Counted from the stretch's first letter, positions 3,536-60,607 are shown. The stretch: DNA of 64,000 bases from Candidatus Hinthialibacter antarcticus (GCA_030765645.1 JAVCCE010000054.1:3568-67567); one strand, 5' to 3'. The notes: generated by a model not told the origin, from the letters alone. A program made the numbers and translations.

Positions 3536-3581
3536 CTTCTGTGAGTTTTAGCGGATATGCAAATGATATATAAAAAATAGA

Positions 3582-3603
3582 AGAGGCGGCTTAAGCCGCC
3601 TCT
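3582..3603. terminator. Bidirectional rho-independent terminator hairpin between convergent genes
   Basis: Perfect 9-bp stem agaggcggc/gccgcctct with ttaa loop. Preceded by an A-run (aaaaaata) and followed by tctgttgtg. Confidence 0.6.
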
Positions 3604-3654
3604 CTGTTGTGAGATAAGCATAGAACACGCAACCGTGTCTCATTCATTGAATGA

Positions 3655-6600
3655 TCAAAATGAATTGATCCGAATCTCAATTTGATTGACCCCCGGATAT
3701 AACCTTACATTTCCAAAAGAAAGATTTACCGTTTCTCCATTCAGGGTTATCACGTCTTCGGGCGACGTGGATAAAGCAAACTCCGCCGCCATATTAGCCG
3801 GGAGTTCAATCCTGTATTTTTGCAAGCGGTTATTCACTCGCTGATATTCGCCTTTGATTTGACCACGCACCGTCGGAAAGACGATTGAACTGTTGGCTAG
3901 GTCTCCCATTTGTGGATGTATGCTCGTGATTTTAAAGCCTGGCGTCTTGGGTTGAATTCCCCAAAGGAAGCGGGGAATGATATTTCCCGGAACGGCGCCC
4001 CAAGCATGGTTCCAATCCGAGTTGGGTTTATATTTCATGTCCCATGCTTCCATGGTAATTGTCGAGCCGACTTTAATCATGTTCCACCAGCTGCGGTCGT
4101 GTTTGGCCCGCATTAAATCGAGCGCATATTTTTCTTCGCCGGCATTGTATAAACCCTCCATCAGATATTGGGCGCCATACACGCTACATGCCATCCCCCG
4201 CGATTTCACAAACGCGGCAACCGGCGCAACATATTTTTCCGGCGTAATACCAAACGCCAATGGCATCATGTTGGCGTGTAATGAAGCGTGTGTTGAACCT
4301 TCGCCATCGACATAGACGCCGCGCGTTGCGTCAAATAATTTTGTATTAATGGCTTGTTTTACTTTCGCCGCCATTGCGTTAAAATGGTCGGCCTCTTCTG
4401 GCTTGTCCAACACGGCGGCGAATTCCGCCATGATGACCATGTTCTGATAAAAGAAACAATTGACCACGGTGTTGATGGGGACCCTATCATAGCCGTCGCG
4501 TTCTCCTGGAGGCCAATCGACAAGATCTTCAAGCGGTCTTGATCCCTCAGGAAAGCCCAGTTTTTTCATATAGGCGTCGGTTACTTTCTCTAATTCTGAA
4601 CTGATCAAACCATCTTCTCTGGCCAGGTCCATCAGTGATTTTTCTTTCAGGCGTTCATAATAGGCGGTCAGCAATTCCGTATCGCCCGTGTAGTAATAAT
4701 CTTGATAGACCAGCATGGCGGTGTGAAGCAGCCACTCGGTGGGCCATGTCGAATGGTCCATAAAATACTCGATGGTCTGCTTGCTGATTGCGTATTCACG
4801 GTCGACGCAATAGTGGCTGAGCAGGTTAATATATGCGTCTCCCTCATAGGGAATCCGCTCGCGATCTCCATCAACGTATAGCCCGGCGAATGACGTCGCC
4901 TTCATGCTGTACTTACAGAGTTCCCAGATTTGGTCCAAGGTGGAATCAGAGCTGGTAAACGAACTCTCATCGTTTTTGAAATAATGGAATAGCGCTTTTT
5001 GCCGGACATCGTCAACCGACAAACCCTGCTTAGCATTTTCAATCTCGCAATAGCGGAAGGGCGTCACCACGCCAAGCGACTCAGGAAGCGCAACGGCGAT
5101 CTGGTTGGTGTTTCGCTTGTCCGGGGGGAGTTGCAACACATAGTGATTTTGTTCAGGGGCAACCTGTAATTCAACTTCTTGATAACGAATGGTCCCGCCT
5201 GGCTTCTGATCTATTTTTCCGTCTTTGAGTTTTTCGCCCAATCGAATGATGAGCGTCTCTGGCTTGTTGGCTTTGTAGTTTAATTCCAACGTCCCGAAAG
5301 CGTCTTTTCCAAAATCAACAAAATAGCCGCCATCGGATGTTTTTTTGAATTCTGTTGGCGGGATATGTTCAATCTGAAAACGATTTTTTGTTGAAACCGT
5401 TTTGCCAAATGTTCCGGTTTTGAATGTTTGCACTTCTGAATAATCGGTTAGCCGATTGTCTTTATCCCAGATACGCACCTTCCAATAATAGGTCGTCTCC
5501 GGCTGTAACGGACCGCCCGCATGTTCAACATTGATGGATTGGCTGCTACGCGCTTGGGCGCTGTTCCAAACATCGCCGATGTTGTGATTGCTTTTTTCAA
5601 GGCTGGATGAGACCAGTATTTGATAGGCTTTCTGCAACACCGCCTGTTTGGGAACAATCCAACTATATTCTGGTAAAGAGTCGGCGATTGCCGCTTGGTC
5701 TGGCTCACGGATAAATTCTACTGTCATGCCTTCTGGAACACCAGCGTCAGCCCCTTTGTGCTGTTCAATCAACTCTTCGCATTGATTTCTCAAAGCGACA
5801 AGCGTGTCATGATATTGGCTATCTCGCGCCAGGTTTTTTGTTTCTTGTGGATCATCAACCAGGTTGTAGAGCGCTTCAATCGACTTGTCATTCACATAGC
5901 GAAAATATTTCCATTGCGCCGTGCGTACGCCTTCGCTGGGTGGAATATTCTCAAATTCCCACAGGTGTTCGACGAGAACCGCGTCGCGTTGCAACGAACT
6001 TTTTTGTCCGGCAACGATTGGAACAAGGCTTTTACCTTGGTAACTCTCGGGGCTTTTGGCCCCGGCATACTCAAGAATGGTCGATGGAATATCGACATTC
6101 AACGCCATCGCTTCGATGTCCTGGTGTTTGTCAACGCGCGGGTCAAAGATGATGAGCGGCACACGGATCGAATTGTCATACATCAACCATTTGCCAGCCA
6201 TTTGGCGTTCGCCAAGAAAATAGCCATTGTCTCCCATGACAATAATTACGGTATTATCATCGACACCTTTTTCTTCGAGTTTCTTTCTGAGTTTCGCGAT
6301 TTCCAGATCAATGCCGCCGATCATACGGTAATAGCCTTTGACGCTGTGCTGGTATTTTTCGGGGGTATCATAACGCCAGCGCCAGCGCGTCCGGTTGAAC
6401 CCTTCACGCACCATAAGCGGTAATTCGTTGAAGTATTCGTCACCCGCCAGATTGGGGCCGGGCATGGTCATGTCCTGGTATAAGTGGTTCGTTTCTTTTT
6501 GCCAGAAATACTGATCGTCGGCATTATCGTGAGCGTGTGGAGCGCTGAAACTTAACGATAGGCAAAAGGGCTGGTCGGCAGGCGATTCGTCAATAAAATC

Positions 6601-7200
6601 AAGCGCCTTTTCACCAGTGTAGCGCGTCAAATGGACCACTTCGCCGTCTAGTTTTTTGTAGAAATAACCGCGCTGGTCAGGGTAGCGGCCATTTCGGTCA
6701 TACGATTCATACACGTCAAAGAGGTTTGCATCATCGTTATAATTCACGCCAAACTTGCCAAAGAAACCCGTGTGGTAACCCGAATCTCTCAGCAATTTCG
6801 GATAAGAGGTCTGCATGTACTCATCTTGGATCGGCCCTGTTTGAAAGGTGTAACGATGACACCGTTCATATAAGCCCGTAAAAAGGCTGGCGCGGCTGGC
6901 GCAGCAAATAGGCGTTGTGACTATCGTGTGTTTGAAAAAAGTACCCTGCCGGGCGAGTTTGTCCATTTCGGGGGTCTGGATAATCGCATTGCCCGCATAA
7001 CCAAGAGCGTCCCAGCGCTGGTCATCAGTAAGAATAAAGATAATGTTGGGTTTCTTCGCAGACGCCGCCGCAAGAGAAGTGGAGCATGTGATGGTGATGA
7101 TAAAAATAACAGCAAAGATATATTGCAAGAAGACAGACTTCGGGTCTGCATTATTCATACGTAGCTCTTGTCGGCGTGTAATCATCTGATTTCCCATCAT
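3655..7200 (-). CDS. Fusion protein: N-terminal formylglycine-type sulfatase domain + C-terminal GH78 alpha-L-rhamnosidase-like module
   Basis: Sulfatase signature IIFILTDDQRWD ... PICCASRASLFTG (C-x-A-S-R). C-terminal part has the GH78 FN3-like N-domain motif TTYYWKVRIWDKDNRLTDYSEVQTFKTG and a six-hairpin domain (YEGDAYI..., YQNMVIMAEFAAVLDKPEEADHF). Signal peptide after the alternative start MNNADPKS at 7158. Confidence 0.7.
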   Translation of the reverse strand: MMGNQMITRRQELRMNNADPKSVFLQYIFAVIFIITITCSTSLAAASAKKPNIIFILTDDQRWDALGYAGNAIIQTPEMDKLARQGTFFKHTIVTTPICCASRASLFTGLYERCHRYTFQTGPIQDEYMQTSYPKLLRDSGYHTGFFGKFGVNYNDDANLFDVYESYDRNGRYPDQRGYFYKKLDGEVVHLTRYTGEKALDFIDESPADQPFCLSLSFSAPHAHDNADDQYFWQKETNHLYQDMTMPGPNLAGDEYFNELPLMVREGFNRTRWRWRYDTPEKYQHSVKGYYRMIGGIDLEIAKLRKKLEEKGVDDNTVIIVMGDNGYFLGERQMAGKWLMYDNSIRVPLIIFDPRVDKHQDIEAMALNVDIPSTILEYAGAKSPESYQGKSLVPIVAGQKSSLQRDAVLVEHLWEFENIPPSEGVRTAQWKYFRYVNDKSIEALYNLVDDPQETKNLARDSQYHDTLVALRNQCEELIEQHKGADAGVPEGMTVEFIREPDQAAIADSLPEYSWIVPKQAVLQKAYQILVSSSLEKSNHNIGDVWNSAQARSSQSINVEHAGGPLQPETTYYWKVRIWDKDNRLTDYSEVQTFKTGTFGKTVSTKNRFQIEHIPPTEFKKTSDGGYFVDFGKDAFGTLELNYKANKPETLIIRLGEKLKDGKIDQKPGGTIRYQEVELQVAPEQNHYVLQLPPDKRNTNQIAVALPESLGVVTPFRYCEIENAKQGLSVDDVRQKALFHYFKNDESSFTSSDSTLDQIWELCKYSMKATSFAGLYVDGDRERIPYEGDAYINLLSHYCVDREYAISKQTIEYFMDHSTWPTEWLLHTAMLVYQDYYYTGDTELLTAYYERLKEKSLMDLAREDGLISSELEKVTDAYMKKLGFPEGSRPLEDLVDWPPGERDGYDRVPINTVVNCFFYQNMVIMAEFAAVLDKPEEADHFNAMAAKVKQAINTKLFDATRGVYVDGEGSTHASLHANMMPLAFGITPEKYVAPVAAFVKSRGMACSVYGAQYLMEGLYNAGEEKYALDLMRAKHDRSWWNMIKVGSTITMEAWDMKYKPNSDWNHAWGAVPGNIIPRFLWGIQPKTPGFKITSIHPQMGDLANSSIVFPTVRGQIKGEYQRVNNRLQKYRIELPANMAAEFALSTSPEDVITLNGETVNLSFGNVRLYPGVNQIEIRINSF

Positions 7201-7292: not shown

Positions 7293-10200
7293 TTATTTTT
7301 TCTTGGCTGCGGCTAATTTCGCTTTCGCATCATTAAGCAAACCCGAATCCATTGAGGCTTCGATGTATAACTCATGGATCGACCAATAGAGGCCGTCAAC
7401 TTTTCCGGTCTGTATGATTTTGATAAAACGTGCAGTGCGGTTTGGAATGTCTAACGCAACAACCGGCGTTTCACCTTTTCCTTCAACAACAGGGCCAGAC
7501 CACGAAATGCCATCGCTGGATAACAACACTTGATAACCGCGCGGGTAGTCGCCGCCTGAATTTTTAGAATCTAAGACGATTTTTTGGATACTGCGCTGCG
7601 AGCCAATATCAACCTGGAGCCACATGCCCGGCACTTGCGTTGCAGCGGTGTCCCAGCGCGATCCTTCGTTTCCATCAATGGCATTTTTTACGGCGCCATT
7701 GTTGTGTGAGGCGGACAGCTTCCAATCCGACCGATCAAGTTCCGACGCGCTTAGTTTGTTGATTAACGCTTCACAGGCTGAAATCGCCTCGGCTTTCACT
7801 TCTTTATCTGACAAATAAGACTCTATCTGCGTTAACGAATTCATATCGACCGTCTTCGCAAGCGCGCCGATCATCATCTTCTTCTCATTGGCGGTTTTGG
7901 CTTTCGCCTTCGCCTTGCCAAACCAGGGGCTATCCGGCGGCGTTAATCCGAGCGAATGAATAACCGCTTTGAAAGCAAGCCCTCGCTGTTCTTCCTCTTT
8001 GAACTGCGACATGCGGGAGAGTAATAATTCGATAGGCGTATTGTCTTTCCAACTCCCAAGCGCATACAACGCGGCGTTTTGGACAGAGCGGTTTTTGTCT
8101 TGAAGCGAATTCGAGACCAGATTGAACGCCTCCGGCCCGCTATATTCAGTCAAGAGGCGAATGTATGACTGCTTGACTTTTGGCGAGGAGTCGGCGAACA
8201 GTGATGCAATTTTATCGGTCGCCGCGCTCTTGTCAGCCAATTGTGACGATAACGATTTCGCGACTTCTTCTAAGCCTCGGATATCTCCTTCGTCATCTTT
8301 GCCCTGAATTAATTGAAGTACGGTCGGAACATCATTCGCGCCGCCGAGCGTCATCAATGCGTTATAAGCGGCTTGGCGGATACCGGGGCTTTTGTCGCCA
8401 GTCAATTTCACGATTGATGAAAAAGCATCCCGCGCATTGCGGTCGGCCAGCGCGTTAATTGCCGACAAGCGCTTTGCTTCATTGGAGTCGCCAAGAAACG
8501 CAATCAGCGCACCGTTGACGCGGTCGCCTTTGAGTCGCGCCAGACTGTTTTGCGCTGCTTGCCCCAGTTGTCCGCCCTTGAGCGCGAACGTAATCAAAGG
8601 CGCCGCAACACGCGCATTGCCAATCGCCCCCAACGTTTGAACCGCTGCAATTTGGACGGACGCGTTCGAACTCTTCGCCGCATCCAAGACCTCAGCAATT
8701 ACATTCCCGTGGCCGCGCCTTGCGAGCGCATTCAACACCACCACTTGTGATTCTTCGGGCAATTGCTTCAACTCTTGCGCCAATGACTTCGACGCATCCT
8801 CGCCGGGAAGCATCTTTAAAAATGGGCCGCAAGCCGCTTGTTGCAGTTTGGGCTCATTCTCTTTCAGCAATGAAATAACAAGAGGCAGCGATGAATCAGA
8901 ATCAATATTGATCAAGCCGCCGTAGGCCGCAACGCGAACCTGTGCGGGGTATTCTGGAGACGATAGTTGCGTGTAAACATTTTTCGATAATGCGGCTGAT
9001 TTGGTTTGCGCGAGCGAGTCGGCGCATAAAAGCAACGCATCGAGTTTATAGGGTTCGAGATCATCGCTTGCGACGAAGTCGCTCAGTATTTTCAACGCGG
9101 CCTTGCCGCCAATTCGACCGAGCGCCCGGGTGGTCACTTGTTGCAAGTACGGATCATCGCTTTTCAGAAATTTCGCCAGTGATTTCGCCGCTTTTGGATT
9201 GCGGCGTTCTGCGATGGAGCCAATCACGCCAATGAGTTTGTCGCCAGTCAGCGAGTTTAAAGATTTTTTGAATAACGCATCGACTTTTGGAGATTGGATG
9301 CCTTGCAAAGCCAAACGCGCCGGATCATTTAACCGGTCGTCTTGCAAAAACTTCCCTAAGGTTTTAACCGACTTCACTGTGCCGATTCGGCGAAGCATTT
9401 GACAGACAAACGCGCAGCCGTCAAACGTCGCGCCTTCTGCGTTTAAAACAGAGAGCATCTGGGCTTCAATTTCGCGCAACTGTTTCGGCGTCGCGATGCG
9501 AATATTGGCCTCGACGGCTGCGAGCGTTGTTCGGCTTTGCCCATAGGTATAGTTGGCGATTTCATCAATGTTGACCGGTTCCAGCCAAAGGCTAACCCGA
9601 TCTTCCGTTGGGAAATTTTCAGGGATTTTGTTTAAAGTGACTTTGCCCGTCGCGGCCCATTCGGTCCCACGTTGAAGCGTAAACGCAAAACCAATGCAAC
9701 GCATCGCATAAACGTCGTGTCCTAATGCGGTGTGGAAAATTCGCCCTTTGCCATATTCGATGGTGAACAAAAGAGGCTCATTTTCATTGGTGAGTTTTGA
9801 TTTTCCGTAACCCAACAGGTCTTCGATATTGGCGGGGCCGCGCATTTTTGCATAGAGTTCGTCTTTGGCGTGCAACCAAACTTTAGGCAGCCCTTTTGAG
9901 ATCGGGTGTTTCAAATCATGCATAACAACGGGGTAATCGCGCCGTGGGCCATGAGCGCCGCCTCTTCCGGGCGAATGATCCAAGACGATTTTACCATCGC
10001 GGACGCGAACCATCGGGCCAGACTTTTCGTTGCGACCGCCCCAACCGCCCAACGCGATCATTTTGTTGAACTCCAGCCATTCAGGGAACGCATTATCCGC
10101 AGCATGGTACGACACAAGCCCGCCGCCGTTTTTGATGTAGTTCTCAAAATCAGTTTGTGTTTCTTTCGACCACAAGTTGCCGTTGTAATTTGATACGACC

Positions 10201-10448
10201 ACGTCGTATTTAGAAAACTCAGGCCGAAAGTTTTTCAAAGAACTGTCTTGGGGCGGCGACGTGGCAACGTCTACTTCAAACCGTCCACAGTCTTCTAGCA
10301 TATATTTCAAGACGGGAGTGGTCGCCTTCCAGTCATGATTGTTTTGCCCGTCAATAATTAAGGCTTTCAACGGCGCCGCTGAACTGTCAGCAATGAAAGT
10401 CAATCCAACGATAAAAAGCGCGACGAATGTATATCGAAACAAGTTCAT
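7293..10448 (-). CDS. Secreted multidomain protein: ThuA-like (class I glutamine amidotransferase fold) N-domain + HEAT/PBS-lyase-like repeats + C-terminal F5/8 type C (discoidin) domain
   Basis: Signal peptide. ThuA-like LKALIIDGQNNHDW...SNYNG. Many HEAT-like repeats with ALGRIG/ALARRG motifs. C-terminal GNEGSRWDT...GMWLQVDIG...YQVLLSSDGISWSGPV is typical of discoidin domains. Confidence 0.6.
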   Translation of the reverse strand: MNLFRYTFVALFIVGLTFIADSSAAPLKALIIDGQNNHDWKATTPVLKYMLEDCGRFEVDVATSPPQDSSLKNFRPEFSKYDVVVSNYNGNLWSKETQTDFENYIKNGGGLVSYHAADNAFPEWLEFNKMIALGGWGGRNEKSGPMVRVRDGKIVLDHSPGRGGAHGPRRDYPVVMHDLKHPISKGLPKVWLHAKDELYAKMRGPANIEDLLGYGKSKLTNENEPLLFTIEYGKGRIFHTALGHDVYAMRCIGFAFTLQRGTEWAATGKVTLNKIPENFPTEDRVSLWLEPVNIDEIANYTYGQSRTTLAAVEANIRIATPKQLREIEAQMLSVLNAEGATFDGCAFVCQMLRRIGTVKSVKTLGKFLQDDRLNDPARLALQGIQSPKVDALFKKSLNSLTGDKLIGVIGSIAERRNPKAAKSLAKFLKSDDPYLQQVTTRALGRIGGKAALKILSDFVASDDLEPYKLDALLLCADSLAQTKSAALSKNVYTQLSSPEYPAQVRVAAYGGLINIDSDSSLPLVISLLKENEPKLQQAACGPFLKMLPGEDASKSLAQELKQLPEESQVVVLNALARRGHGNVIAEVLDAAKSSNASVQIAAVQTLGAIGNARVAAPLITFALKGGQLGQAAQNSLARLKGDRVNGALIAFLGDSNEAKRLSAINALADRNARDAFSSIVKLTGDKSPGIRQAAYNALMTLGGANDVPTVLQLIQGKDDEGDIRGLEEVAKSLSSQLADKSAATDKIASLFADSSPKVKQSYIRLLTEYSGPEAFNLVSNSLQDKNRSVQNAALYALGSWKDNTPIELLLSRMSQFKEEEQRGLAFKAVIHSLGLTPPDSPWFGKAKAKAKTANEKKMMIGALAKTVDMNSLTQIESYLSDKEVKAEAISACEALINKLSASELDRSDWKLSASHNNGAVKNAIDGNEGSRWDTAATQVPGMWLQVDIGSQRSIQKIVLDSKNSGGDYPRGYQVLLSSDGISWSGPVVEGKGETPVVALDIPNRTARFIKIIQTGKVDGLYWSIHELYIEASMDSGLLNDAKAKLAAAKKK

Positions 10449-10465
10449 GTTTTTTTCCTTTATAA

Positions 10466-11752
10466 TTAAGCTAAGGTCCAGGGCTTGCGATAGGCGCGGC
10501 CTAAGAGCGCGTTTGCTTCAGGGTCGTCGATGATGGTTTCCGTATCGGGGTTCCAGCGAATTTTTCGATTGAGCAGCATTGTGATTTCGCCTAAATGCCC
10601 GACGCTGATGGAACGGCAGCCGGTTTCGGCGGGGCAGATGGTTTCCTGGCGGCTTTTTACGCAGTCCAGAAAATTCTGGAAATGGTCGCGGCTTTGATAC
10701 AGGCGCGTATCGTTTGGCCCGATGCAGTCTTTTTTTAACAAGTTTTCGTCTGATGCTTCGATGGCGCCTCGATTGACCCAAACCCAGCCATTCTCGCCGA
10801 TCCACTTTGTTCCGCCCCGGTTTGAACTCGAGATGTTAATGGTGACGCCGGTTTTATATTTGCAGACAAAACTGTAACTCGTAGCGGTGTCATACAAACC
10901 TTCGCGGGGATACTCGGCGCTGCCGCTAATTTCAACCGGCCCGGTTTGGTCGTAGCCCATGCCCCAGTGGGCAATGTCGATATGGTGGCCCGCCCAGTCT
11001 GTGAGTTGGCCTCCTGAATAATCCATAATCCAGCGCCAGTCCCAGTGGCAGCGGTCTCTACCAAAGTCACAGTATTCACGCCAGGGCGCAGGGCCGAGCC
11101 AGCGGTCCCAATCTAAATCTTCAGGCGCGGGCTTCGTTGGTTTGAGGTCCGTTGAACCACCGCCGGGCAAGCCCACTTCGACTGTGTGGATCGCCCCGAT
11201 TTTCTCATTGCGCACCAGTTCGCACGCATGTTGAAAATTTCCTTCAGAGCGCTGTTGGCTGCCGGTTTGCCATACCCGTCCGTATCGGCGAACCGCGTCA
11301 CAAATGGCGCGGCTTTCGCGGATGGAGCGCGACAGCGGCTTTTCGCCATAGACATCAAGGCCTCTTTTCGCCGCAGCGATTGCGGGCAGCGCATGCCAAT
11401 GGTCGGGGACGGCGATCAAGACCGCGTCGAGGTCGTCGCGCTCAAGCAGTTCGCGAAAATCCACGTAAGCGGCGCAGTCGCTATTATCATTAAATTCGTC
11501 CACGCTTTGTTTCGCCCGTTTGCGATGCGAGCCGTCAACGTCGCAAACAGCCCGAATATATGCTTCGTCGCGGCGCATAAAATTGCGCATGTCGCCGGTG
11601 CCTTGCGAACCGACGCCGATGCAACCCATCACGATCCGGTTGCTAGGCGCGACGTTTCCAAATGTACCCATGGCGGAAGCCGAAATAAACATCGGCGCCG
11701 CGAATGTGGATTTCAAAAAGTTTCTGCGAGAAAAATTTGATTGATTCGGCAT
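10466..11752 (-). CDS. Gfo/Idh/MocA-family NAD(P)-dependent oxidoreductase with twin-arginine (Tat) signal
   Basis: N-terminal SRRNFLKSTFAAPMFISASA Tat motif. Rossmann MGCIGVGSQG. Family-typical EKPLS motif. Confidence 0.8.
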   Translation of the reverse strand: MPNQSNFSRRNFLKSTFAAPMFISASAMGTFGNVAPSNRIVMGCIGVGSQGTGDMRNFMRRDEAYIRAVCDVDGSHRKRAKQSVDEFNDNSDCAAYVDFRELLERDDLDAVLIAVPDHWHALPAIAAAKRGLDVYGEKPLSRSIRESRAICDAVRRYGRVWQTGSQQRSEGNFQHACELVRNEKIGAIHTVEVGLPGGGSTDLKPTKPAPEDLDWDRWLGPAPWREYCDFGRDRCHWDWRWIMDYSGGQLTDWAGHHIDIAHWGMGYDQTGPVEISGSAEYPREGLYDTATSYSFVCKYKTGVTINISSSNRGGTKWIGENGWVWVNRGAIEASDENLLKKDCIGPNDTRLYQSRDHFQNFLDCVKSRQETICPAETGCRSISVGHLGEITMLLNRKIRWNPDTETIIDDPEANALLGRAYRKPWTLA

Positions 11753-12266: not shown

Positions 12267-12379
12267 AAAAATGAAAAGGCAAAAACCACGTTTTCTTGTG
12301 ATCTTTGCCTTTTATATCTAAAACCGAAACGAACTCTACATCTTAAAAGGTCTGCCTAAAGATTCTCGCAGAATGGTTG

Positions 12380-25360: not shown

Positions 25361-25771
25361 TCAAATCAGAAGAATCGTCGAACGAATTTGAGAGGAAAGC
25401 AGGCTTTGATAATGGAACGGGGCGACTTGAGTCAATTGAGATTTTTGGTAGACGGGCGAAACTCGCACAAAAGAATCGAATCTCAGCGATGGAAGATTGA
25501 GCGAGGGCGGTTCGCATTTGGCGGAACCGAGAACAATGGTTTCGTTTTGGAGTAGAGGGATATCAATACAAGCGCCGCAATTATCTTCTTCCTCTTCTTC
25601 TTGAGAAACGAGACTGACAGAGCGTTGGCTATTTGTTGAAGCGCAACATACTTTCTCCTGCGAATTTTCGAAAGAGAAATGTCCGTCGCTTCCAACACAC
25701 AGAACGGCCCCCGAAAATGGAAACTGTAATAGCGTCGAGACGACAAATACCCAATAGAAGAAACGTTTCAT
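25361..25771 (-). CDS. Small hypothetical secreted protein with Cys pairs (CC, CGAC) and a poly-Glu tract
   Basis: Signal-like MKRFFYWVFVVSTLLQF. Lies directly upstream of, and co-directional with, the czcC-like gene. No recognisable family, and coding status is uncertain. Confidence 0.3.
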   Translation of the reverse strand: MKRFFYWVFVVSTLLQFPFSGAVLCVGSDGHFSFENSQEKVCCASTNSQRSVSLVSQEEEEEDNCGACIDIPLLQNETIVLGSAKCEPPSLNLPSLRFDSFVRVSPVYQKSQLTQVAPFHYQSLLSSQIRSTILLI

Positions 25772-25913
25772 TTTATATCCAGAAGAAAACAAGCGCCGTT
25801 CTCGCCTTTGAAAACGGCTTATTATTTTACAGTGTACACGATTATTTCTGTCACCTTTATCATATACCACCTAATTTCTCATCCACAAGTGTCTGGCATT
25901 AGAAGCGAGGTCA

Positions 25914-26770: not shown

Positions 26771-27040
26771 GGTTCATCCGGCAAGTGAGTACTTACATTG
26801 ATGGATGGCCATAATTTTTATTGAGAAACAGGCTCCGGCATTTCATAAATTGACAAACCAATCAGGCATGAGTGGAACTCTGGGAGCGCCTGTGCATAAG
26901 GGCTTGAAAGCCCGCACTGAAGCGAGCAGAGTTGTACCCATGCCTGATACAGCGAAAGATCAAGCATTTACGAAAAAACGTCAAAAAAACGCAATTCAAT
27001 TTGTGATAAAGTATCCAAATACCGGAAGAACCGAATTTTA
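26771..27040. repeat. Dispersed intergenic repeat family, copy B (full length, orientation 2)
   Basis: ggttcatccggcaagtgagtacttacattgatggatggccat...caggcatgagtggaactctgggagcgcctgtgcataagggcttgaaagcccgcactgaagcgagcagagttgtacccatgcctgatacagcgaaagatcaag... The ORF-track ORF 26805..27155 is an artefact of this element. Confidence 0.85.
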
Positions 27041-29929
27041 TTTGATTACTTTAAACGAATATTCGCCGGACGGCGTAAAGAAAACCAGTTTCTCATTTTC
27101 TGTCCGAACCAATATAACATCTCTCTGTCTGCTGAGTTCTTTTCCATTTAACTGAACTTGATCCAAGTTCGCAGCCGGAACATAAACATGAGCGGTGGTA
27201 TTCGCTGGTATCCTGACGCTTAACTCAAACATCGCTTCCGAATTTTTCCATTCGCTGCCAATCGCGCCATGAATACTTTCAACCGACGCCTTCACCCAAT
27301 GGATGGGTTCCTGTTCGGGGTTCGAGCCATATTCAGGCGGATGAGGATCAATGATGATTTCCTTGTAGCCGGGCGACGCGCAGTCGATCCCCGCCAGCGA
27401 CTGGAACATCCATTCACACACCGCGCCGAAGGCGTAATGGCTGAATGAGTTCATCGACACGCTGGCGAAACCGTCTTCTTTGGTATAGCTGTTCCAGCGC
27501 TCCCAAATGGTGGTGGCGCCGTTTTCAACTTCATACCCCCATGATGGATATCGGCGGCTTTGCAACAACCGGGCGGCCAAATCGTTATTGCCGTGACGGG
27601 TCAGCACCGTCAACAGTGGACGCGTCCCCAAAAACCCGGTGCTCATGCGAACGTCGTTTTCATTGATGAGTTCCACAAGGCGGTCGCTCGCGGCTTGCGT
27701 CTGTTCTTCCGAAACCAATCCGGCGAACAGCGCCAATGAATAGGAGGTTTGATAATCATGCTTGATGCGCCCGTCATCACTTAGGTACTTTGCGGCAAAT
27801 GCGTTTTTGATTGATGAATACAATTCACGATACTGTTTTGCGTCATCGCTTTCACCAATCGCGTCCGCCATTTCGGCCATCATTCGCGCGGATAGCGCAA
27901 AATAAACCGTATCGACATACTCAACCGGCGCAGTGTCGCCCAGCGCCAGCCAATCGCCCCAACCGTTGCCGATATTCACGCCCAAAAAGTCAGGGCTGTT
28001 GGTTTGGCGAAACTGCATGAAGCGCGTCATCGACTCGTAATGCCGTTCGATAACGCGCACGTCGCCGTACACCTTATATATTGTCCAGGGACAAATGATC
28101 CCCGCATCCATCCAGGCGGTCGCGAAGCCGCGATGGGGTTTGCCGTGCATCATCGGATAGGGCGCATAATCGGGATACGCCCCATTGGGCAATTGGGCTT
28201 CTTCTAAATCATCCAGCCATTTAGTAAAGAAGGCGGCGACGTCAGCGTTATAGCTCGCCGTTCGGATATAGGTTTGCGCATCACCCGTCCAGCCAAAGCG
28301 CTCGTCGCGTTGCGGGCAATCAGTGGGGACTTCAAAAAAGTTCGACCGCTGCGTCCAGACGATATTTTTAAACAATTGATTGACCATCGGATCAGAACAC
28401 GCAAACGAACTGGTCAGCGGCGTGTCGGAATGAATGGCGATTCCCGTGACGGTATTCAGGCTGGGCTTTTCCGTCAGGCCCGTTAATTCAACATATTGGA
28501 ATCCATGATAGGTAAAACGCGGCTCCCAGATTTCGGGCTGGCTGTCGCCGCGCAAGATGTAAGTATCCGTCGCTTGCGCCCGGCGCAGGTTTTCGGTCAT
28601 CAAGCGCCCGTCAGGGTGCAGCATCTCACCGTGGCGAATCACAATCGTATCGCCGCGCTTGCCTTTCACCTTGATCTGTACAACGCCGGAAAAGTTTTGC
28701 CCCATATTAAAGATAAAGGTTCCCGGAGAAGGCTCGGTGATCTCAATCGGTTTTATCTTCTCCGTCGGACGGATGGGGACTGACGGATAGGCAGTGATTT
28801 GCTTTGGTTCAATAAAACCAAACTCCATTTCGCGCTTACCTGCTTGGTCCGTAAACACGGCCTTGGTCGAACCATTATCTTTCGCGGGGATAGCACTCTC
28901 CCACTGCGCGTCGTCAAAGCCAGGCTGGTTCCAACCAGGTTGTTCCAGCCGCGCGTCATAGGTTTCACCCATGAGCATGTCGGCCTTAACAATCGGCCCG
29001 GTGCGAGTTTTCCAGCTGGCGTCGGTTGCGATGATTTCGCTGGTTCCGTCTGTATATTCGATCTCAAGTTGCGCCAAGAGCGCCGGGGTCTTTCCATAAA
29101 TATTGCGCCCGCTTTGGTTGGGGCCATAACCGACCAGCAAGCCATAGCCGAGATAACCGCTATACCAGCCGTCAGCGACGATGGCGCCAATCGCGTTTTG
29201 TTTAGACTGGACCAGGCTTGTCACGTCAAATGCGTTGTAGTAAACCCGTTCGCGATAATCTGACCAGCCGGGGGTAAACATTTGGTCGCTAACGCGTTTT
29301 CCGTTGATGCTCAGTTCATAGATTCCCAACGCAGACGCATAGGCCATGGCGCGTTTGATTGGCTTGTTCGCGACAAACGTCTTTCGGTAATATCGCGCTG
29401 GCGGAAGAACCATATTCTCTCTTGACGCCGACATGGGCGCATCATCTTTAAAACTGGTCCACTCCGCTTTCCAGTCTTCATTCGACAACAACCCCATTGA
29501 CCAATGCGCGGCGCTGCTCCAATGAGACGCGCGACCATCCTGCCCCCAGACGCGCACTTTCCAGAAACAATGTTGACGCGATTGTAGTGGAGCGCCTTGG
29601 TAGGCAATGTTGACGCTTTGGCTGCTTTCGGTTTTTCCTGAATCCCAAAGATCAAACTGGTTTCGATGCAACAATTCATCGCTCGAAGCAACGCAAATTT
29701 GATAGGCGGTTTGCAGGGCGCCATTTTCGTCAGAGTCCAACTTCCAACTTAAGCGCGGCTGGGTTTCATCAATGCCAATTGGGTTTACCAGATACTCGGT
29801 GCGCATGTCTTGCGCCGTGAGCGCGTCCGCCGCTGCCATCGCTCCTAGATAACCGAGAAAAATAAAAAAAACGGCTGCTGTTTTTTGAAGAGAAAAATTC
29901 ATCGTTCGCCCCATTGTTCTATATTTCAT
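27038..29929 (-). CDS. Secreted GH78 alpha-L-rhamnosidase
   Basis: N-terminal LTAQDMRTEYLVNPIGIDETQPRLSWKL and HCFWKVRVWGQDGRASHWSSAAHWSMGLL (GH78 N-domain). Six-hairpin catalytic domain follows. Signal peptide after alternative start MNFSLQK (29902). Confidence 0.8.
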   Translation of the reverse strand: MKYRTMGRTMNFSLQKTAAVFFIFLGYLGAMAAADALTAQDMRTEYLVNPIGIDETQPRLSWKLDSDENGALQTAYQICVASSDELLHRNQFDLWDSGKTESSQSVNIAYQGAPLQSRQHCFWKVRVWGQDGRASHWSSAAHWSMGLLSNEDWKAEWTSFKDDAPMSASRENMVLPPARYYRKTFVANKPIKRAMAYASALGIYELSINGKRVSDQMFTPGWSDYRERVYYNAFDVTSLVQSKQNAIGAIVADGWYSGYLGYGLLVGYGPNQSGRNIYGKTPALLAQLEIEYTDGTSEIIATDASWKTRTGPIVKADMLMGETYDARLEQPGWNQPGFDDAQWESAIPAKDNGSTKAVFTDQAGKREMEFGFIEPKQITAYPSVPIRPTEKIKPIEITEPSPGTFIFNMGQNFSGVVQIKVKGKRGDTIVIRHGEMLHPDGRLMTENLRRAQATDTYILRGDSQPEIWEPRFTYHGFQYVELTGLTEKPSLNTVTGIAIHSDTPLTSSFACSDPMVNQLFKNIVWTQRSNFFEVPTDCPQRDERFGWTGDAQTYIRTASYNADVAAFFTKWLDDLEEAQLPNGAYPDYAPYPMMHGKPHRGFATAWMDAGIICPWTIYKVYGDVRVIERHYESMTRFMQFRQTNSPDFLGVNIGNGWGDWLALGDTAPVEYVDTVYFALSARMMAEMADAIGESDDAKQYRELYSSIKNAFAAKYLSDDGRIKHDYQTSYSLALFAGLVSEEQTQAASDRLVELINENDVRMSTGFLGTRPLLTVLTRHGNNDLAARLLQSRRYPSWGYEVENGATTIWERWNSYTKEDGFASVSMNSFSHYAFGAVCEWMFQSLAGIDCASPGYKEIIIDPHPPEYGSNPEQEPIHWVKASVESIHGAIGSEWKNSEAMFELSVRIPANTTAHVYVPAANLDQVQLNGKELSRQRDVILVRTENEKLVFFTPSGEYSFKVIK

Positions 29930-30206: not shown

Positions 30207-30522
30207 CCGTTTGCAAAGAGCCTTCCAAAAATTGTTTTGCGAGCGCTTCAGGAAGTTCCTCCGGCGCGCCGATCACAACCCGGATGGAGTATTGATCAAA
30301 CAATTGTTTGGCTTTGATGCCCATGCCGCCGCAAATAATGACGTCTGCGCCTTGCTGGTGCAACCACAAGGGCAAGACGCCAGGTTCATGAGGCGGAGGC
30401 GTGACGAGCGTCTTGCTCGTTACCTGTCCTGCTGAAGAGTCGACTTCAAGCAGAGCAAAATGTTCACAATGGCCAAAATGGGCTGCGAGTTTTTCGTTGA
30501 TGACGGGGACGGCGATTTTCAT
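30184..30522 (-). CDS. NifX/NafY-like dinitrogenase FeMo-cofactor-domain (Nitro_FeMo-Co) small protein
   Basis: MKIAVPVINEKLAAHFGHCEHFALLEV...GADVIICGGMGIKA...SIRVVIG is the canonical domain pattern. The start overlaps the stop of the upstream gene (TAATG). Confidence 0.75.
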   Translation of the reverse strand: MKIAVPVINEKLAAHFGHCEHFALLEVDSSAGQVTSKTLVTPPPHEPGVLPLWLHQQGADVIICGGMGIKAKQLFDQYSIRVVIGAPEELPEALAKQFLEGSLQTGENLCTH

Positions 30523-31439
30523 TAGTTGGCTCCTTTTTTTGAGACTTCACTTGATAAAGTTAGTCGTTGTTTTATGGTTCGCCATAGTTCTCGAATGGCG
30601 ATTGCCGACGGACCATTTGAAAATTCTGTTAATGACATTTGATTGATTTGCGCCTCGACGAAAGAACTGTCATACGGAATTCGCCCAACAACTGGCGTCC
30701 CCAGTTCGATTCCGCGCATGGTGATGCTGTGGGTGATATCCCGGTTGATATCATATTTGTTCACACAAATAACGGCTGGAATATCGAAGTGATGAGACAA
30801 TTCAACCACTCGTTCCATATCATGAAAACCGGATAACGTTGGCTCGGTGACGATAAGAACTAAATCAACGCCTGAAATTGCAGCAATGACGGGACATCCA
30901 ATCCCGGGCGGGCCGTCGATCAATATCCAATCGCAGCCAAGTGATTGGCCCCATTCAAACGCATGTCTCCGAACCAACGTTGATAGTTTTCCTGAATTCT
31001 CTTTCGCGACTTGCAAGGTTGCGTGAGTCATTGGCCCTAAACGTGAGTGAGAGCGAAACCATTCTCCATTTTCTTCTTCCCGAAGTTCGATGGCGCCGAC
31101 GGGACAATACCGGACGCAGACCCCGCATCCTTCACAGGCCAGTGAATCAACTTGATAGACGGTTCCAGCCATTGTCTCTACGGGCTGCACCGCCTCAAAT
31201 GCGCAAAGGTCAAAACAAACCCGGCAATCAATGCACTTGTCTTTTGATATATAGGCTTTTTTTCCACAACGAAACGCTCCGCGTTCAATTACTTGTGGAT
31301 TTAATACGAGGTGCAAATCAGACGCGTCGACGTCGCAATCCGCAACCATCGCATTTTGGGCGAGAGACGCGAGACATGCCGTCAAACTAGTTTTTCCGGC
31401 GCCGCCTTTTCCACTGATTATGCTAATTTGCTTCATCAT
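30522..31439 (-). CDS. MinD/Mrp-superfamily P-loop ATPase with inserted 2x[4Fe-4S] ferredoxin-like domain (COG1149 type), paralog B
   Basis: Walker A GKGGAGKTS. Inserted Cys clusters CIDCRVCFDLC and CEGCGVCVRYCP. 4-nt overlap with the paralog upstream. Confidence 0.8.
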   Translation of the reverse strand: MMKQISIISGKGGAGKTSLTACLASLAQNAMVADCDVDASDLHLVLNPQVIERGAFRCGKKAYISKDKCIDCRVCFDLCAFEAVQPVETMAGTVYQVDSLACEGCGVCVRYCPVGAIELREEENGEWFRSHSRLGPMTHATLQVAKENSGKLSTLVRRHAFEWGQSLGCDWILIDGPPGIGCPVIAAISGVDLVLIVTEPTLSGFHDMERVVELSHHFDIPAVICVNKYDINRDITHSITMRGIELGTPVVGRIPYDSSFVEAQINQMSLTEFSNGPSAIAIRELWRTIKQRLTLSSEVSKKGAN

Positions 31440-32302
31440 GGGCGGCTCTCGCTTCCGACCAATGAAGACGCAACGCTAAAATATATTTCCACCATTGGTT
31501 TTTGCACGCTTGGAACGCTCTTGACAATCAATTCTCCGCGAGAACAGGCCTCAGCGGCGATACGATCATCCGGCACCGAAGCGATAATCGGAATCGCTTC
31601 TCTCGCACAGTAATCATGCGCACAAGAATCGCCGATTCCATCCCGGTTAATGACCACGCCAAACGGAACCTCTAATAATCGCAAAAGTTCAACAATTAAA
31701 TGAAGATCGTGGACGCCGAACGGCGTCGGTTCACAGACAAGAATCACAAAATCACAATCTCGAACCGCTTCAATGGTTGGGCAGGAACAACCCGGCGGGC
31801 AATCAACGATGACAAACGAATTATCATCTGCATACGACTTTACCGTTCGGATCACAGGAACAGCAGACGGTTCTCCGATATTTAGTTTCCCCTGAACAAA
31901 TGCAAAGCCGTCCGCCCATCCCCGCTCAATATCACCAACCGTTCGCTGGCCTTTTGTGATTGCTTTTTCGGGGCATCCACGCCAACAGCCGCCGCATCCA
32001 TGACAGAGATCAGGAAACACCAAAATGTTCTTGCCCACATAAACAATTGCCTGAAACTGACAGATGTCTGCACACTGACCACATTGAGTACATAGGCTGG
32101 GATCATAACTCGGGCAGTTCACATAAACCGGCAATTTTTGATCGAGTATAGGTTTAACAAAGATATGGCAGTTCGGCTCTTCAACGTCGCAGTCAAGCAA
32201 GCAAACTGGAGCGGATGAATAACGAGATGCGATATACGCAAGATTGGCGGCGACGGTCGTTTTCCCGACGCCGCCCTTACCGCTAGCGATTGCAACTTTC
32301 AT
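31436..32302 (-). CDS. MinD/Mrp-superfamily P-loop ATPase with inserted 2x[4Fe-4S] ferredoxin-like domain (COG1149 type), paralog A
   Basis: Walker A GKGGVGKTT. Cys clusters CTQCGQCADIC and CHGCGGCWRGCP. Confidence 0.8.
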   Translation of the reverse strand: MKVAIASGKGGVGKTTVAANLAYIASRYSSAPVCLLDCDVEEPNCHIFVKPILDQKLPVYVNCPSYDPSLCTQCGQCADICQFQAIVYVGKNILVFPDLCHGCGGCWRGCPEKAITKGQRTVGDIERGWADGFAFVQGKLNIGEPSAVPVIRTVKSYADDNSFVIVDCPPGCSCPTIEAVRDCDFVILVCEPTPFGVHDLHLIVELLRLLEVPFGVVINRDGIGDSCAHDYCAREAIPIIASVPDDRIAAEACSRGELIVKSVPSVQKPMVEIYFSVASSLVGSESRP

Positions 32303-32538
32303 GTAGATAAACCGTCACGCAGCATCGGAGATTGACATTTGGGACAGATCAGCGTCTTGCATGGAACGCCGGGCTGATGAGGCGCGGTTTCGCCACAGTT
32401 AGGACAAACGCAATTTCCGTCCTGGCTCATAGCGCTTCGCCCTTTGCCCTGGCCGCGTCCCTGCCCCTGACCGCCCTTTCGTCCACCTCCGCCGGAACTT
32501 GGTCCTCGACTACCTTGTCCTGATTGGCCTTTTGGCAT
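32299..32538 (-). CDS. Mini-protein: Gly/Gln/Arg-rich N-terminus + C-terminal 4-Cys zinc-ribbon (CVCPNCG...CPKC)
   Basis: 79 aa, overlaps the downstream gene by 4 nt. Low-complexity GQGQGRGQGKGR tract followed by CxCxxC...CxxC. Confidence 0.45.
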   Translation of the reverse strand: MPKGQSGQGSRGPSSGGGGRKGGQGQGRGQGKGRSAMSQDGNCVCPNCGETAPHQPGVPCKTLICPKCQSPMLRDGLST

Positions 32539-32567
32539 TTCACTTGGCTCTCTTCCGATTGGGCCTG

Positions 32568-32918
32568 TTATGGTTCCAATGATGATGGTTCGTTGCTGGG
32601 CGGCGCTTCCAATTTCTCAATGCGTTGGTTGATGTTATCCAACAACAATTGAACTTGCTCCGCCTGTTCTTTTAGCGCGGCCAAATCCTGATTGCGGTCG
32701 AATGCAGCAACATCTAGAGAGAAGTTTCCCTGTCGGCGTCCTCTTCCAAATGAGTTGGAGGCCCTGCTCCCTCGTCTTCGTCCAACACTGCGACCAACTC
32801 GAAATGGAACGCCTCCTCTCCCTGTAGAAACATTGCTTACGGTTCCAGTACACAATCCAAAACCGCGTCCTGTGGCGGGCCCCATTCCAGAGGGGCCGCT
32901 TCGATCTTTTCCTGGCAT
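32568..32918 (-). CDS. DUF5320-like protein (Gly/Arg-rich N-terminus MPGKDRSGPSGMGPATGRGFGLCTG + C-terminal coiled coil)
   Basis: Strong RBS AAGGAGG 9 nt upstream of ATG 32918; the ORF-track extension to 32960 is unlikely to be coding. The N-terminal motif and length match DUF5320-type proteins, which co-occur with COG1149/NifX-like genes. Confidence 0.55.
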   Translation of the reverse strand: MPGKDRSGPSGMGPATGRGFGLCTGTVSNVSTGRGGVPFRVGRSVGRRRGSRASNSFGRGRRQGNFSLDVAAFDRNQDLAALKEQAEQVQLLLDNINQRIEKLEAPPSNEPSSLEP

Positions 32919-32931
32919 GATGACGACCTCC

Positions 32932-33828: not shown

Positions 33829-34180
33829 CGCCGTCTTGGTCTTCGGCGCTTTTTTCTTTTAACTTTCCGGCTTTGAATTGTTTGAGGGCCTGTACGACCG
33901 ATTCCTCTGAAGAGAGATACCCCTTGATGTTCGCCGCCGACAGCGTTGTCAGGGCTTTAGGGCCGATGTTTCCGGCTATCACCACTTTGACTCCATGAGT
34001 AGCAAGCATTTTCACTGTCCCAATGCCGGCCCCGTGATCCATTTCATTATTCTCGTCATTTTCAAGCGCGTTAAATTCTTCGCTATCCGAATCGAAAATA
34101 ATAAAATACGCAGACCGGCCTAAACGTGAATTAACCCGGCTAAAGATATCCATGCCTTGTGAAGCGATTGCAATTTTCAT
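33797..34180 (-). CDS. NifX/NafY-like Nitro_FeMo-Co domain small protein (second copy)
   Basis: MKIAIASQGMDIFSRVNSRLGRSAYFIIFDSD...GVKVVIAGNIGPKALTTLSAANIKGY. Start 34180 has a GGAGAA RBS. Confidence 0.7.
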   Translation of the reverse strand: MKIAIASQGMDIFSRVNSRLGRSAYFIIFDSDSEEFNALENDENNEMDHGAGIGTVKMLATHGVKVVIAGNIGPKALTTLSAANIKGYLSSEESVVQALKQFKAGKLKEKSAEDQDGVGARANENVL

Positions 34181-60546: not shown

Positions 60547-60568
60547 TTTGATAGATTCAATGACAATC
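60547..60568 (+). promoter_or_regulatory. Conserved upstream motif tttgatagattcaatgacaatc, 40 nt before the sulfatase start
   Basis: See 56883..56904. Confidence 0.45.
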
Positions 60569-60607
60569 TCGAGACTAATTCTATATCAGAGTTTGGACAA
60601 TATAATA

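Follow-up and report, generated by a model that had tools for sequence, protein, structure and literature searches.

A gene on the minus strand of the window, the whole 64,000-nucleotide stretch of DNA that was analyzed, very probably codes for a secreted exo-enzyme with two activities, of the same type as Formosa agariphila P36. Its product carries an S1 sulfatase module and a GH78 alpha-L-rhamnosidase module in one polypeptide; the catalytic residues of both are intact, the sulfatase module is closely homologous to that of P36, and the fusion is conserved in other bacteria. P36 (FA22250 / BN863_22250) of F. agariphila KMM 3901 is described by Reisky et al. 2019, as cited in PMC9096561, as a bifunctional S1_25 sulfatase-GH78 belonging to the ulvan PUL H. 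The host of the present gene, Candidatus Hinthialibacter antarcticus, is an Ace Lake MAG for which 39 sulfatases, rhamnose catabolism and microcompartments were reported (PMC9324843).

Architecture of the fusion protein

The original prediction placed a sulfatase and a GH78 enzyme in a single polypeptide, and analysis of the sequence confirmed this. A single ORF of 1181 aa with zero internal stops occupies 3655..7200, and six Pfam domains were found in it, every match being far over the curated cut-offs. Its strand, previously unstated, is minus. The NCBI version of the same protein (MAG Candidatus Hinthialibacter antarcticus, 100% identity) starts at M15 (nt 7158) and has 1167 aa. The features are:

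3655..7200, minus: whole fusion ORF, 1181 aa; very probably a bifunctional S1_25 sulfatase / GH78 alpha-L-rhamnosidase, P36 type
7063..7200, minus: N-terminal leader, aa 1-46; charged stretch, hydrophobic core VFLQYIFAVIFIITITCSTSL, AAASA ahead of KKPN
5758..7062, minus: S1 sulfatase module, aa 47-481, S1_25-like; 6HR5 match, Pfam Sulfatase and SGSH_C
6892..6906, minus: formylglycine motif C99-C-A-S-R103; C99 is the predicted formylglycine residue
5728..5757, minus: short inter-module junction, aa 482-491, KGADAGVPEG; the conserved VEFIREP comes next
5407..5727, minus: Ig/FN3-like domain Ig_Rha78A_N, aa 492-598; Pfam E 4e-23
5002..5346, minus: concanavalin-like beta-sandwich, Bac_rhamnosid, aa 619-733; Pfam E 1e-6, beta strands in the AF2 model
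3976..4968, minus: (alpha/alpha)6 catalytic domain, Bac_rhamnosid6H, aa 745-1075; Pfam E 1.7e-46
4858-4860, minus: predicted general acid E781, aligned to SaRha78A E636
4048-4050, minus: predicted general base E1051, aligned to SaRha78A E895
4006-4008, minus: predicted rhamnose-binding H1065, aligned to SaRha78A H916
3658..3960, minus: C-terminal beta-sandwich, aa 1081-1181; Pfam Bac_rhamnosid_C at aa 1081-1152, E 1.3e-9
3581..3604, minus: strong intrinsic-terminator-like hairpin, 10-bp stem with 7 GC pairs and a T-run, 51 nt past the fusion stop codon

The motifs named in advance were all present: LTDDQRWD at aa 57-64, CCASR at aa 99-103, YYWKVRIWD at aa 571-579 and FKTG at aa 593-596. Judged by eye, the leader resembles a signal peptide of the Sec type; alignments with homologs begin only at about aa 21-50, and the gap fraction of this region in the family alignment is 45%. 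The terminator-like hairpin is situated between the fusion gene and a convergent glutamine-synthetase-like gene.

Pfam located Sulfatase at aa 51-381 (E 9e-48) and SGSH_C at aa 330-479 (E 1.5e-28). The sulfatase module matched PDB entry 6HR5 over aa 47-481 at ~70% identity (697.7 bits), a sequence comparison with P36 that covers its sulfatase half alone (467-aa PDB construct), and the next-best PDB sulfatase scored 157 bits. The record of 6HR5 is entitled 'S1_25 family sulfatase module of the rhamnosidase FA22250 from Formosa agariphila', and the assignment of our module to S1_25 is by proxy, through its closeness to this entry. The full-length AF2 model of the fusion (pLDDT 85, pTM 0.83) superposed on 6HR5 with a TM of 0.90 (Foldseek). 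C99 was found in 119 and R103 in all of 120 homologs. D59, D60, D324 and N325, the predicted metal-binding residues, and K149, H222 and K337, predicted to bind sulfate, occur in 120/120 homologs and are aligned and identical in 6HR5.

The C-terminal half, predicted to be GH78, did score as such in the profile search, where four rhamnosidase Pfam domains exceeded the curated cut-offs. The GH78 module is complete and extends over aa 492-1181, C-terminal to the sulfatase. E781, E1051 and H1065 are invariant (120/120 homologs). In SaRha78A, E636 and E895 are the general acid and the general base. Foldseek matched the model to 6I60, 6GSZ, 3W5M and 3CIH; the GH78 half is remote from all solved GH78 structures, the best match being 87 bits.

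Conservation and ancestry of the fusion

The same fusion architecture was found in at least 269 species-representative genomes, mostly Bacteroidota, from which 80 loci, mostly full length, were kept. An identical set of Pfam domains was found in more than 120 proteins of ~1180 aa, which align at 62-72% identity across 96-99% of length. Full-length copies of Flavobacteriaceae are 58-60% identical to the window fusion, which lends indirect support to orthology between its GH78 half and the GH78 domain of P36. Among the carriers are the isolates Mariniphaga sediminis, Arenibacter algicola, Pricia antarctica and Runella, and in Tunicatimonas pelagia the fusion lies among housekeeping genes within a complete 7.17-Mb genome. 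Many carriers are freshwater or soil taxa (Runella, Pelobium, Haliscomenobacter).

The source being a metagenome-assembled genome, the fusion could in principle be an artefact (an assembly indel or a chimeric contig), or one of its modules could have decayed and become inactive. Both are extremely improbable. The junction at aa 482-491 has 0% gaps and a mean top-residue frequency of 0.74 in 120 aligned homologs, catalytic residues of both modules are kept in 119-120 of the 120, and the identical architecture recurs in the genomes listed above, isolates and the complete T. pelagia genome included; an assembly artefact is therefore effectively refuted. The uniform GC content (0.479 in the fusion gene vs 0.487 in the window) also argues against it, as does the identity of the nearest neighbour for both halves of the fusion in a distance-based, bootstrapped analysis.

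The window copy clusters with a Pirellulales copy inside a Bacteroidota clade. Because these two copies nest there, the sequences suggest that the fusion gene was acquired horizontally by Ca. Hinthialibacter antarcticus, and that the fusion moves across phyla as a unit. A check of the remaining long proteins related to the GH78 half detected no independent sulfatase fusions; they have Laminin_G_3, F5/8C, Big or TSP3 domains instead.

Proposed activity and possible substrates

According to the proposed mechanism, the protein would be exported by the Sec route, and Cys99 of CCASR would then be converted to formylglycine. The conversion would require an FGE or anSME maturase encoded outside the window; Pfam returned no FGE-sulfatase or radical-SAM family matches among the window's 38 main ORFs (the fusion and 37 others). 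The S1_25 module, with the metal- and sulfate-binding residues given above, would hydrolyze the 3-O-sulfate ester on the non-reducing-end L-rhamnose (Rha3S-X-...), and the GH78 module, acting as an inverting alpha-L-rhamnosidase with E781 as acid and E1051 as base, would remove the newly desulfated rhamnose. Together the two steps would yield sulfate, free L-rhamnose and a shorter oligosaccharide; the genome description presents the host as able to catabolize rhamnose. We infer the Rha3S specificity and the sequence of desulfation and rhamnose release from the published biochemistry of P36, the domains of which were assayed separately, with NMR confirming the products (Baumgen et al. 2021, PMC8511951). 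In P36, the sulfatase acts first and takes the 3-O-sulfate off the Rha3S at the non-reducing end of Rha3S-Xyl/GlcA/IdoA-Rha3S; the GH78 domain next splits off the desulfated non-reducing-end rhamnose of ulvan oligosaccharides (PMC8511951). A secreted single polypeptide coupling desulfation to rhamnose removal from sulfated-rhamnose glycans, ulvan for instance, as originally proposed for the window protein, agrees with this published function (PMC8511951, PMC9096561).

Membership in S1_25 alone does not fix the sugar, because the family also includes the 3-sulfo-L-fucose sulfatase SWF4 (PMC9096561). The sulfatase might thus act on another 3-O-sulfated 6-deoxyhexose, namely L-fucose-3-sulfate in fucoidan-like substrates, which would suit the emphasis of the host paper on fucoidan degradation (PMC9324843) and the GH95 fucosidase-type gene adjoining the fusion in the P0006 locus. 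We consider this very unlikely, given the ~70% identity to the Rha3S-specific P36 module and the invariable covalent link to a GH78 with an intact active site, since a rhamnosidase partner would make little sense for such a substrate.

Two co-directional genes lie upstream of the fusion:

7293..10448, minus: secreted ThuA + HEAT-repeat + F5/8-type-C protein, 92 nt from the fusion
10466..11752, minus: GFO/IDH/MocA oxidoreductase, putative first gene of a possible three-gene unit

The ThuA/HEAT/F5-8C gene may be co-transcribed with the fusion, judging from the sequence: no minus-strand terminator-like site was found in the 92-nt gap, and one is present ahead of the GFO/IDH/MocA gene (12313..12274). 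A GFO/IDH/MocA-type neighbour also stands beside the fusion in the P0006 locus and in loci L059, L062, L063 and L067. Overall, 7 of 85 fetched loci, plus the P0006 locus, have GFO/IDH/MocA or ThuA genes no more than ~5.6 kb from the fusion. Comparison of the window with 80 other loci revealed no synteny past the fusion, bar occasional GFO/IDH/MocA, ThuA and stand-alone GH78 neighbours. The fusion is surrounded by GH5, GH78 and double sulfatase genes in the Pirellulales contig, and by GH95, sulfatase and GFO/ThuA genes in the P0006 locus. Locus L083 (P0002, 71% identical) was considered as that of a relative of the window organism with clustered genes and rejected; it holds the Pirellulales protein already represented by L001, and identity to the window counterparts is only 34% for its GH78 and 24% for its AcrB. 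The neighbouring GFO/IDH/MocA gene was likewise rejected as a homolog of P29_PDnc, the ulvan oligosaccharide dehydratase acting on the P36 product, because P29 works independently of any cofactor and was predicted by way of family PL37 (PMC8511951).

The window had also been proposed to be part of a sulfated-rhamnan utilization repertoire with a second, stand-alone GH78 and two more sulfatases. These genes do exist: a canonical GH78 at 27038..29929 (minus; 752 bits to 3W5M) and S1 sulfatases at 57006..58616 (plus) and 60548..62110 (plus). Position 60608, given earlier for the latter, is an internal alternative start of that ORF. However, the additional genes are scattered at 20-55 kb from the fusion among efflux pumps, Fe-S proteins and regulators, and the sulfatases are of unrelated types. 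One, sulfatase A, belongs to the S1_11 GlcNAc-6-/mucin-sulfatase type (7P24, E 3e-155; the S1_7 enzyme 6HHM reached only 83 bits) and the other, sulfatase B, to the ARSA/steryl-sulfatase type; neither resembles the ulvan-type xylose-2-sulfatases (S1_7 / S1_8). No Pfam match to an ulvan lyase (PL24/25/28/37/40) or to GH88/GH105 was obtained in the 37 other main ORFs, and relaxed Pfam thresholds disclosed nothing relevant to a hidden lyase among seven poorly annotated ORFs. Four ORFs with uninformative annotation (three of them Pfam-less), concatenated into one query, gave no match in the PDB, which includes ulvan lyase structures. Evidence for the window as such a repertoire is therefore weak.

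Because the window is devoid of ulvan lyase, GH88/GH105 and ulvan-type xylose sulfatases, and many carriers are freshwater or soil bacteria, the natural polymer may be other than ulvan. The same chemistry could serve to trim sulfated rhamnose caps from microalgal, prasinophyte or cyanobacterial exopolysaccharides or rhamnan sulfate, and the enzyme may have the proteins encoded next to it (GFO/IDH/MocA and ThuA/HEAT/F5-8C) as partners in place of a lyase-based ulvan pathway. We regard this as a serious possibility, somewhat short of an even chance. It is consistent with the absence of SusC/D from the window, with the S1_11-like and ARSA-like nature of the other sulfatases and with the varied neighbourhoods of the fusion (Pirellulales, P0006, Tunicatimonas). 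The proximity of GFO/IDH/MocA or ThuA genes speaks for it as well, but is a minority pattern; moreover, the biochemistry available for a P36-type enzyme concerns ulvan oligosaccharides only, and the window covers 64 kb of the genome, so lyases could sit elsewhere. A more specific scenario is that the fusion passed as a unit from Marinilabiliales-like Bacteroidota to Ca. Hinthialibacterota and Pirellulales. In these polysaccharide degraders from outside the Bacteroidota it would function PUL-free, at the end of an operon that also contains GFO/IDH/MocA and ThuA-HEAT-F5/8C genes, coupling exo-desulfation and de-rhamnosylation with an oxidative route (3-keto-sugar type) for sulfated rhamnans other than ulvan. 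Such a route would be undescribed, and we rate the scenario as rather unlikely. For the preferred reading, an exo-enzyme of the P36 type, a wider range can be proposed: since many carriers are non-marine or have no ulvan lyases nearby, the enzyme probably serves sulfated-rhamnose glycans broader than ulvan.

Comparison with known enzymes

The GH78 half shares its four-domain layout, with no Bac_rhamnosid_N insertion, with short GH78 enzymes of ~740 aa such as BT1001 of Bacteroides thetaiotaomicron (PDB 3CIH), which is alignable over aa ~580-1116 of the window protein. These stand-alone enzymes differ in having no sulfatase module, and 3CIH has Asp at the position of the catalytic acid Glu781. 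The nearest stand-alone representative (P0242) is 53% identical to the GH78 half. SaRha78A of Streptomyces avermitilis (3W5M/3W5N) aligns at E781/E636, E1051/E895 and H1065/H916, whereas the overall identity of canonical GH78 to the GH78 of the fusion is only ~21%. Canonical GH78 enzymes (SaRha78A and that at 27038..29929) possess an extra Bac_rhamnosid_N and the motif DxPxRDERxGWxGD, in contrast to DGDRERIPYE[A/G]D in the fusion clade; the Ig_Rha78A_N domains of the fusion and of the stand-alone GH78 in the window are 36% identical.

A short form of ~580 aa, consisting of S1_25 and Ig_Rha78A_N only, occurs for example in Algoriphagus halophytocola, Arenibacter, Zobellia and Flavobacterium faecale. 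Sulfatase, junction and Ig domain are common to both forms, and seven short proteins that were checked are 56-63% identical to the window protein; across all the short forms, identity to P36_S1_25 is 66-83%. The short form stops at the equivalent of aa ~593, so that the entire GH78 catalytic part is absent, and no GH78 remnant was found downstream.

The closest known system is P36, which likewise combines S1_25 and GH78 in one polypeptide. The two proteins agree in the CxAxR motif and in the residues for metal and sulfate binding, and the GH78 Glu pair of the window protein is intact. The second residue of the motif is Cys in the window protein (CCASR), whereas it is Ala in 6HR5 and Ala or Ser in 119/120 homologs. 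The hosts also differ, Ca. Hinthialibacterota as opposed to Bacteroidota, and the window gene lies outside any SusC/D PUL, with no ulvan lyase, GH105 or S1_7/S1_8 partners in the 64 kb. The view that such fusions are rarely characterized does not apply to this one: besides the assays and NMR analysis of the P36 domains there is the crystal structure 6HR5 of the sulfatase module, and the fusion is widespread. The assignment offers a specific testable function for one of 39 sulfatases and one rhamnosidase of a 'microbial dark matter' phylum. Since P36 has already been characterized and the fusion is present in hundreds of genomes, the enzyme is an already known one, an established component of ulvan degradation common in Bacteroidota, and the window holds an ordinary new copy of it in an unusual host.

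Architecture and catalytic residues of the fusion

One ORF of 1181 aa, with no stop inside it, encodes the fusion (window 3655..7200, minus strand). Every motif quoted in the original prediction was found in it, together with six Pfam domains, each scoring far over the curated cut-offs.

Motifs and Pfam domains of the fusion protein
aa 57-64, LTDDQRWD motif
aa 99-103, CCASR motif
aa 571-579, YYWKVRIWD motif
aa 593-596, FKTG motif
aa 51-381, Sulfatase
aa 330-479, SGSH_C
aa 492-598, Ig_Rha78A_N
aa 619-733, Bac_rhamnosid
aa 745-1075, Bac_rhamnosid6H
aa 1081-1152, Bac_rhamnosid_C

These data bear out the proposal that a sulfatase and a GH78 rhamnosidase share one polypeptide, and the C-terminal half indeed scores as GH78 in profile searches, with four GH78-module domains over the cut-offs. 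On inspection the N-terminus resembles a Sec signal peptide, with a hydrophobic core followed by AAASA|KKPN; M15 is the start in the NCBI call of the identical protein. A GC-rich 10-bp hairpin with a T-run (3604..3581) lies 51 nt past the stop codon.

Conservation was analyzed across 120 aligned full-length members. Residues D59, D60, R103, K149, H222, D324, N325 and K337 of the sulfatase module are invariant and C99 is present in 119 members; D777, D779, R780, E781, R782, Y785, D788, E1051, W1053, H1065 and W1067 of the GH78 module are likewise invariant, and the junction (aa 482-492) contains no gaps. The GH78 half was also aligned to the canonical GH78 of the window and to SaRha78A of Streptomyces avermitilis (PDB 3W5M), pairing E781, E1051 and H1065 with E636, E895 and H916, respectively; in SaRha78A, E636 and E895 have the acid and base roles. 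Judged from these residues both modules look catalytically competent, and the possibility that the fusion is an artefact or carries a dead module is effectively excluded by the conserved residues, the gapless junction and the recurrence of the fusion in isolates and in a complete genome.

The formylglycine motif C-C-A-S-R (window 6892..6906) has a Cys at its second position, which is unique to the window protein, the other 119 members having Ser or Ala; PDB 6HR5, the sulfatase module of Formosa agariphila P36, has Ala. A Cys adjoining the modified Cys is unusual but probably harmless.

Distribution, short forms and proposed transfer between phyla

Among 5.8 billion proteins searched, more than 120 share this Pfam set at a length of about 1180 aa, aligning across 96-99% of the length with 62-72% identity; the one at 100% identity is assigned by its annotation to a Candidatus Hinthialibacter antarcticus MAG. 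At least 269 relatives are encoded in the species-representative genomes scanned. Of the 80 loci retained, most are full length, and isolates of Mariniphaga, Draconibacterium, Arenibacter, Pricia and Runella are among them; the complete genome of Tunicatimonas pelagia also carries the fusion.

When the GH78 half alone was searched against 1.84 billion representative proteins, it fell into a large GH78 subfamily whose members are stand-alone enzymes of about 740 aa and lack Bac_rhamnosid_N, an architecture identical to that of PDB 3CIH. With clustering at 50%, a single full-length protein (P0241, 1178 aa) represents the sulfatase-fused clade, and the clade's other entries seem to be partial copies, judging by length and match position; a stand-alone 741-aa enzyme comes next, at 53% identity. 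None of the other long relatives of the GH78 half had a sulfatase; their N-termini were of lectin or Ig type. Based on the cluster representatives and these N-termini, the fusion appears confined to one clade of the subfamily.

A short form of about 570-595 aa (P0122-P0240; loci L081 8001-9746 and L082 8001-9740), containing only the S1_25 sulfatase, the junction and Ig_Rha78A_N, is widespread and stops at the equivalent of aa ~593 in the window protein. It occurs in the complete genomes of Algoriphagus halophytocola and Flavobacterium faecale and in drafts of Arenibacter and Zobellia; Arenibacter has both forms. No GH78 remnant was found downstream in Algoriphagus or Arenibacter, and most short forms group in one clade of a neighbour-joining tree. 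Because the Ig domain is GH78-specific, they appear to have arisen from the fusion by loss of the catalytic GH78 part, with this domain remaining on the sulfatase.

The published description of the source organism, from Ace Lake in Antarctica, lists 39 sulfatases along with rhamnosidases and microcompartment-based rhamnose catabolism; it notes that some of the sulfatases most closely resemble those in Reisky et al. 2019 and does not discuss the fusion (PMC9324843). The partner of the window protein in a taxon-labelled neighbour-joining tree is a copy from a Pirellulales MAG (71% identity; paired in 200/200 bootstraps), and the two together join Marinilabiliales/Prolixibacteraceae-type Bacteroidota (171/200). 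The two halves share their nearest neighbour, and the GC content of the gene is unremarkable. Movement of the whole fusion between phyla fits this picture; as the tree is unrooted, the direction of this movement is only inferred. Two more full-length copies (L036, L052), on contigs assigned to MAGs of Thalassovita and Thalassobius (Alphaproteobacteria), group together in the tree and could represent more cross-phylum transfers or binning errors.

Gene neighbourhoods and the window repertoire

Genes of the window considered with the fusion
7293..10448 (-), ThuA-HEAT-F5/8C protein, co-directional with the fusion
10466..11752 (-), GFO/IDH/MocA oxidoreductase, co-directional with the fusion
27038..29929, canonical GH78, 752 bits to 3W5M
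57006..58616, Sulfatase A, S1_11 GlcNAc-6-/mucin-sulfatase type (7P24, E 3e-155)
60548..62110, Sulfatase B, closest to steryl sulfatase and ARSA

Short gaps and flanking terminator-like sites make a three-gene operon of the oxidoreductase, the ThuA-HEAT-F5/8C gene and the fusion plausible. The ThuA protein (1051 aa, secreted) comprises ThuA (aa 28-265), a long region of HEAT repeats (~aa 300-900) and, at its C-terminus, an F5/8-type-C lectin domain; for the latter two parts, none of the 85 related loci gave a homolog.

Surroundings of related loci
Pirellulales contig: GH5, GH78 and a double sulfatase
P0006 locus: GH95, sulfatases, GFO/IDH/MocA, ThuA
Mariniphaga: Heparinase-II/III-like and BNR_4 genes
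Tunicatimonas: housekeeping genes

GFO/IDH/MocA and/or ThuA genes recur at most a few kb from the fusion: in the window (7293..11752, minus strand), in the 69%-identical metagenomic P0006 locus, where ThuA is fused to AP_endonuc_2, and in L059, L061, L062, L063, L067 and L068, with carriers in Arenibacter, Euzebyella, Pricia and a Saprospiraceae MAG; in total this is some 7 of 85 loci retrieved. Genes for 3keto-disac_hyd are also present close to the fusion (L084) and to the short form (L082). This recurrence hints at an oxidative (3-keto-sugar) step coupled to the fusion enzyme. Assignment of the GFO/IDH/MocA neighbour as a P29 dehydratase was rejected. The Pirellulales double sulfatase (L083 11156-14023) is a 955-aa protein with two tandem S1 modules, two genes downstream of the fusion copy and adjoining a canonical GH78 and a GH5.

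The suggestion of a sulfated-rhamnan repertoire held only in part: the second GH78 and two more sulfatases exist, but they are scattered 20-55 kb from the fusion and are of unrelated types, and the window yielded no ulvan lyase, GH88/GH105 or S1_7/S1_8-like sulfatase. The second GH78 and the two further sulfatases are surrounded by RND and MacB efflux, Fe-S/NifX-like, sigma-54 activator, GH31, esterase and FG-GAP genes. The window reflects a genome broadly rich in CAZymes and sulfatases and not a locus dedicated to sulfated rhamnan. Seven poorly annotated ORFs gave nothing relevant at relaxed Pfam thresholds, and the four searched against the PDB had no matches.

ORFs with no Pfam hit even at E 0.05
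38997..40142 (-), 381 aa
46914..48791 (+), 625 aa
58735..60384 (-), 549 aa, between the two sulfatases
25361..25870 (-), 169 aa

At least three of these four have signal-peptide-like starts; the three longer ones, which the PDB search covered, had no sequence match. The gene run at 30522..34931 (-) has no relation to glycan degradation. Its products are two P-loop proteins of the CbiA/MinD type that carry 4Fe-4S domains, an ARMT1-like damage-control phosphatase, a protein with a NifX/NifB-type FeMo-cofactor-binding domain and a DUF169 protein.

Proposed mode of action and relation to P36

The sulfatase half (aa 47-481) matches 6HR5 with 697.7 bits and about 70% identity, the second-best PDB sulfatase scoring 157 bits. 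An AlphaFold2 model of the full-length fusion (mean pLDDT 85, pTM 0.83) matched 6HR5 with a TM of 0.90 in Foldseek, where that entry is labelled 'S1_25 family sulfatase module of the rhamnosidase FA22250 from Formosa agariphila'; the GH78 structures 6I60, 6GSZ, 3W5M and 3CIH followed.

The protein is very probably a secreted enzyme of the P36 type acting stepwise: Cys99 would mature to formylglycine, the sulfatase module would take off the 3-O-sulfate of a terminal rhamnose, and the GH78 module would next free that rhamnose with inversion. All substrate tests on enzymes of this type have used ulvan (PMC8511951). The same chemistry is compatible with another sulfated rhamnan as the natural polymer, a serious alternative, and a quite possible one, because there are no lyases near the fusion in the window and many carriers come from freshwater and soil. 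Specificity for fucose-3-sulfate, as in the S1_25 member SWF4, is very unlikely since this sulfatase invariably comes with a rhamnosidase partner.

P36 of F. agariphila is itself a multidomain protein of an S1_25 sulfatase and a GH78 rhamnosidase; its sulfatase desulfates the non-reducing-end Rha3S of Rha3S-Xyl/GlcA/IdoA-Rha3S, after which the GH78 domain takes off that rhamnose (PMC8511951). The coupled desulfation and rhamnosidase role originally predicted is therefore correct but not new, being already established for this enzyme type. Overall, the fusion is a known enzyme type, structurally and biochemically characterised, here in an unusual phylum.
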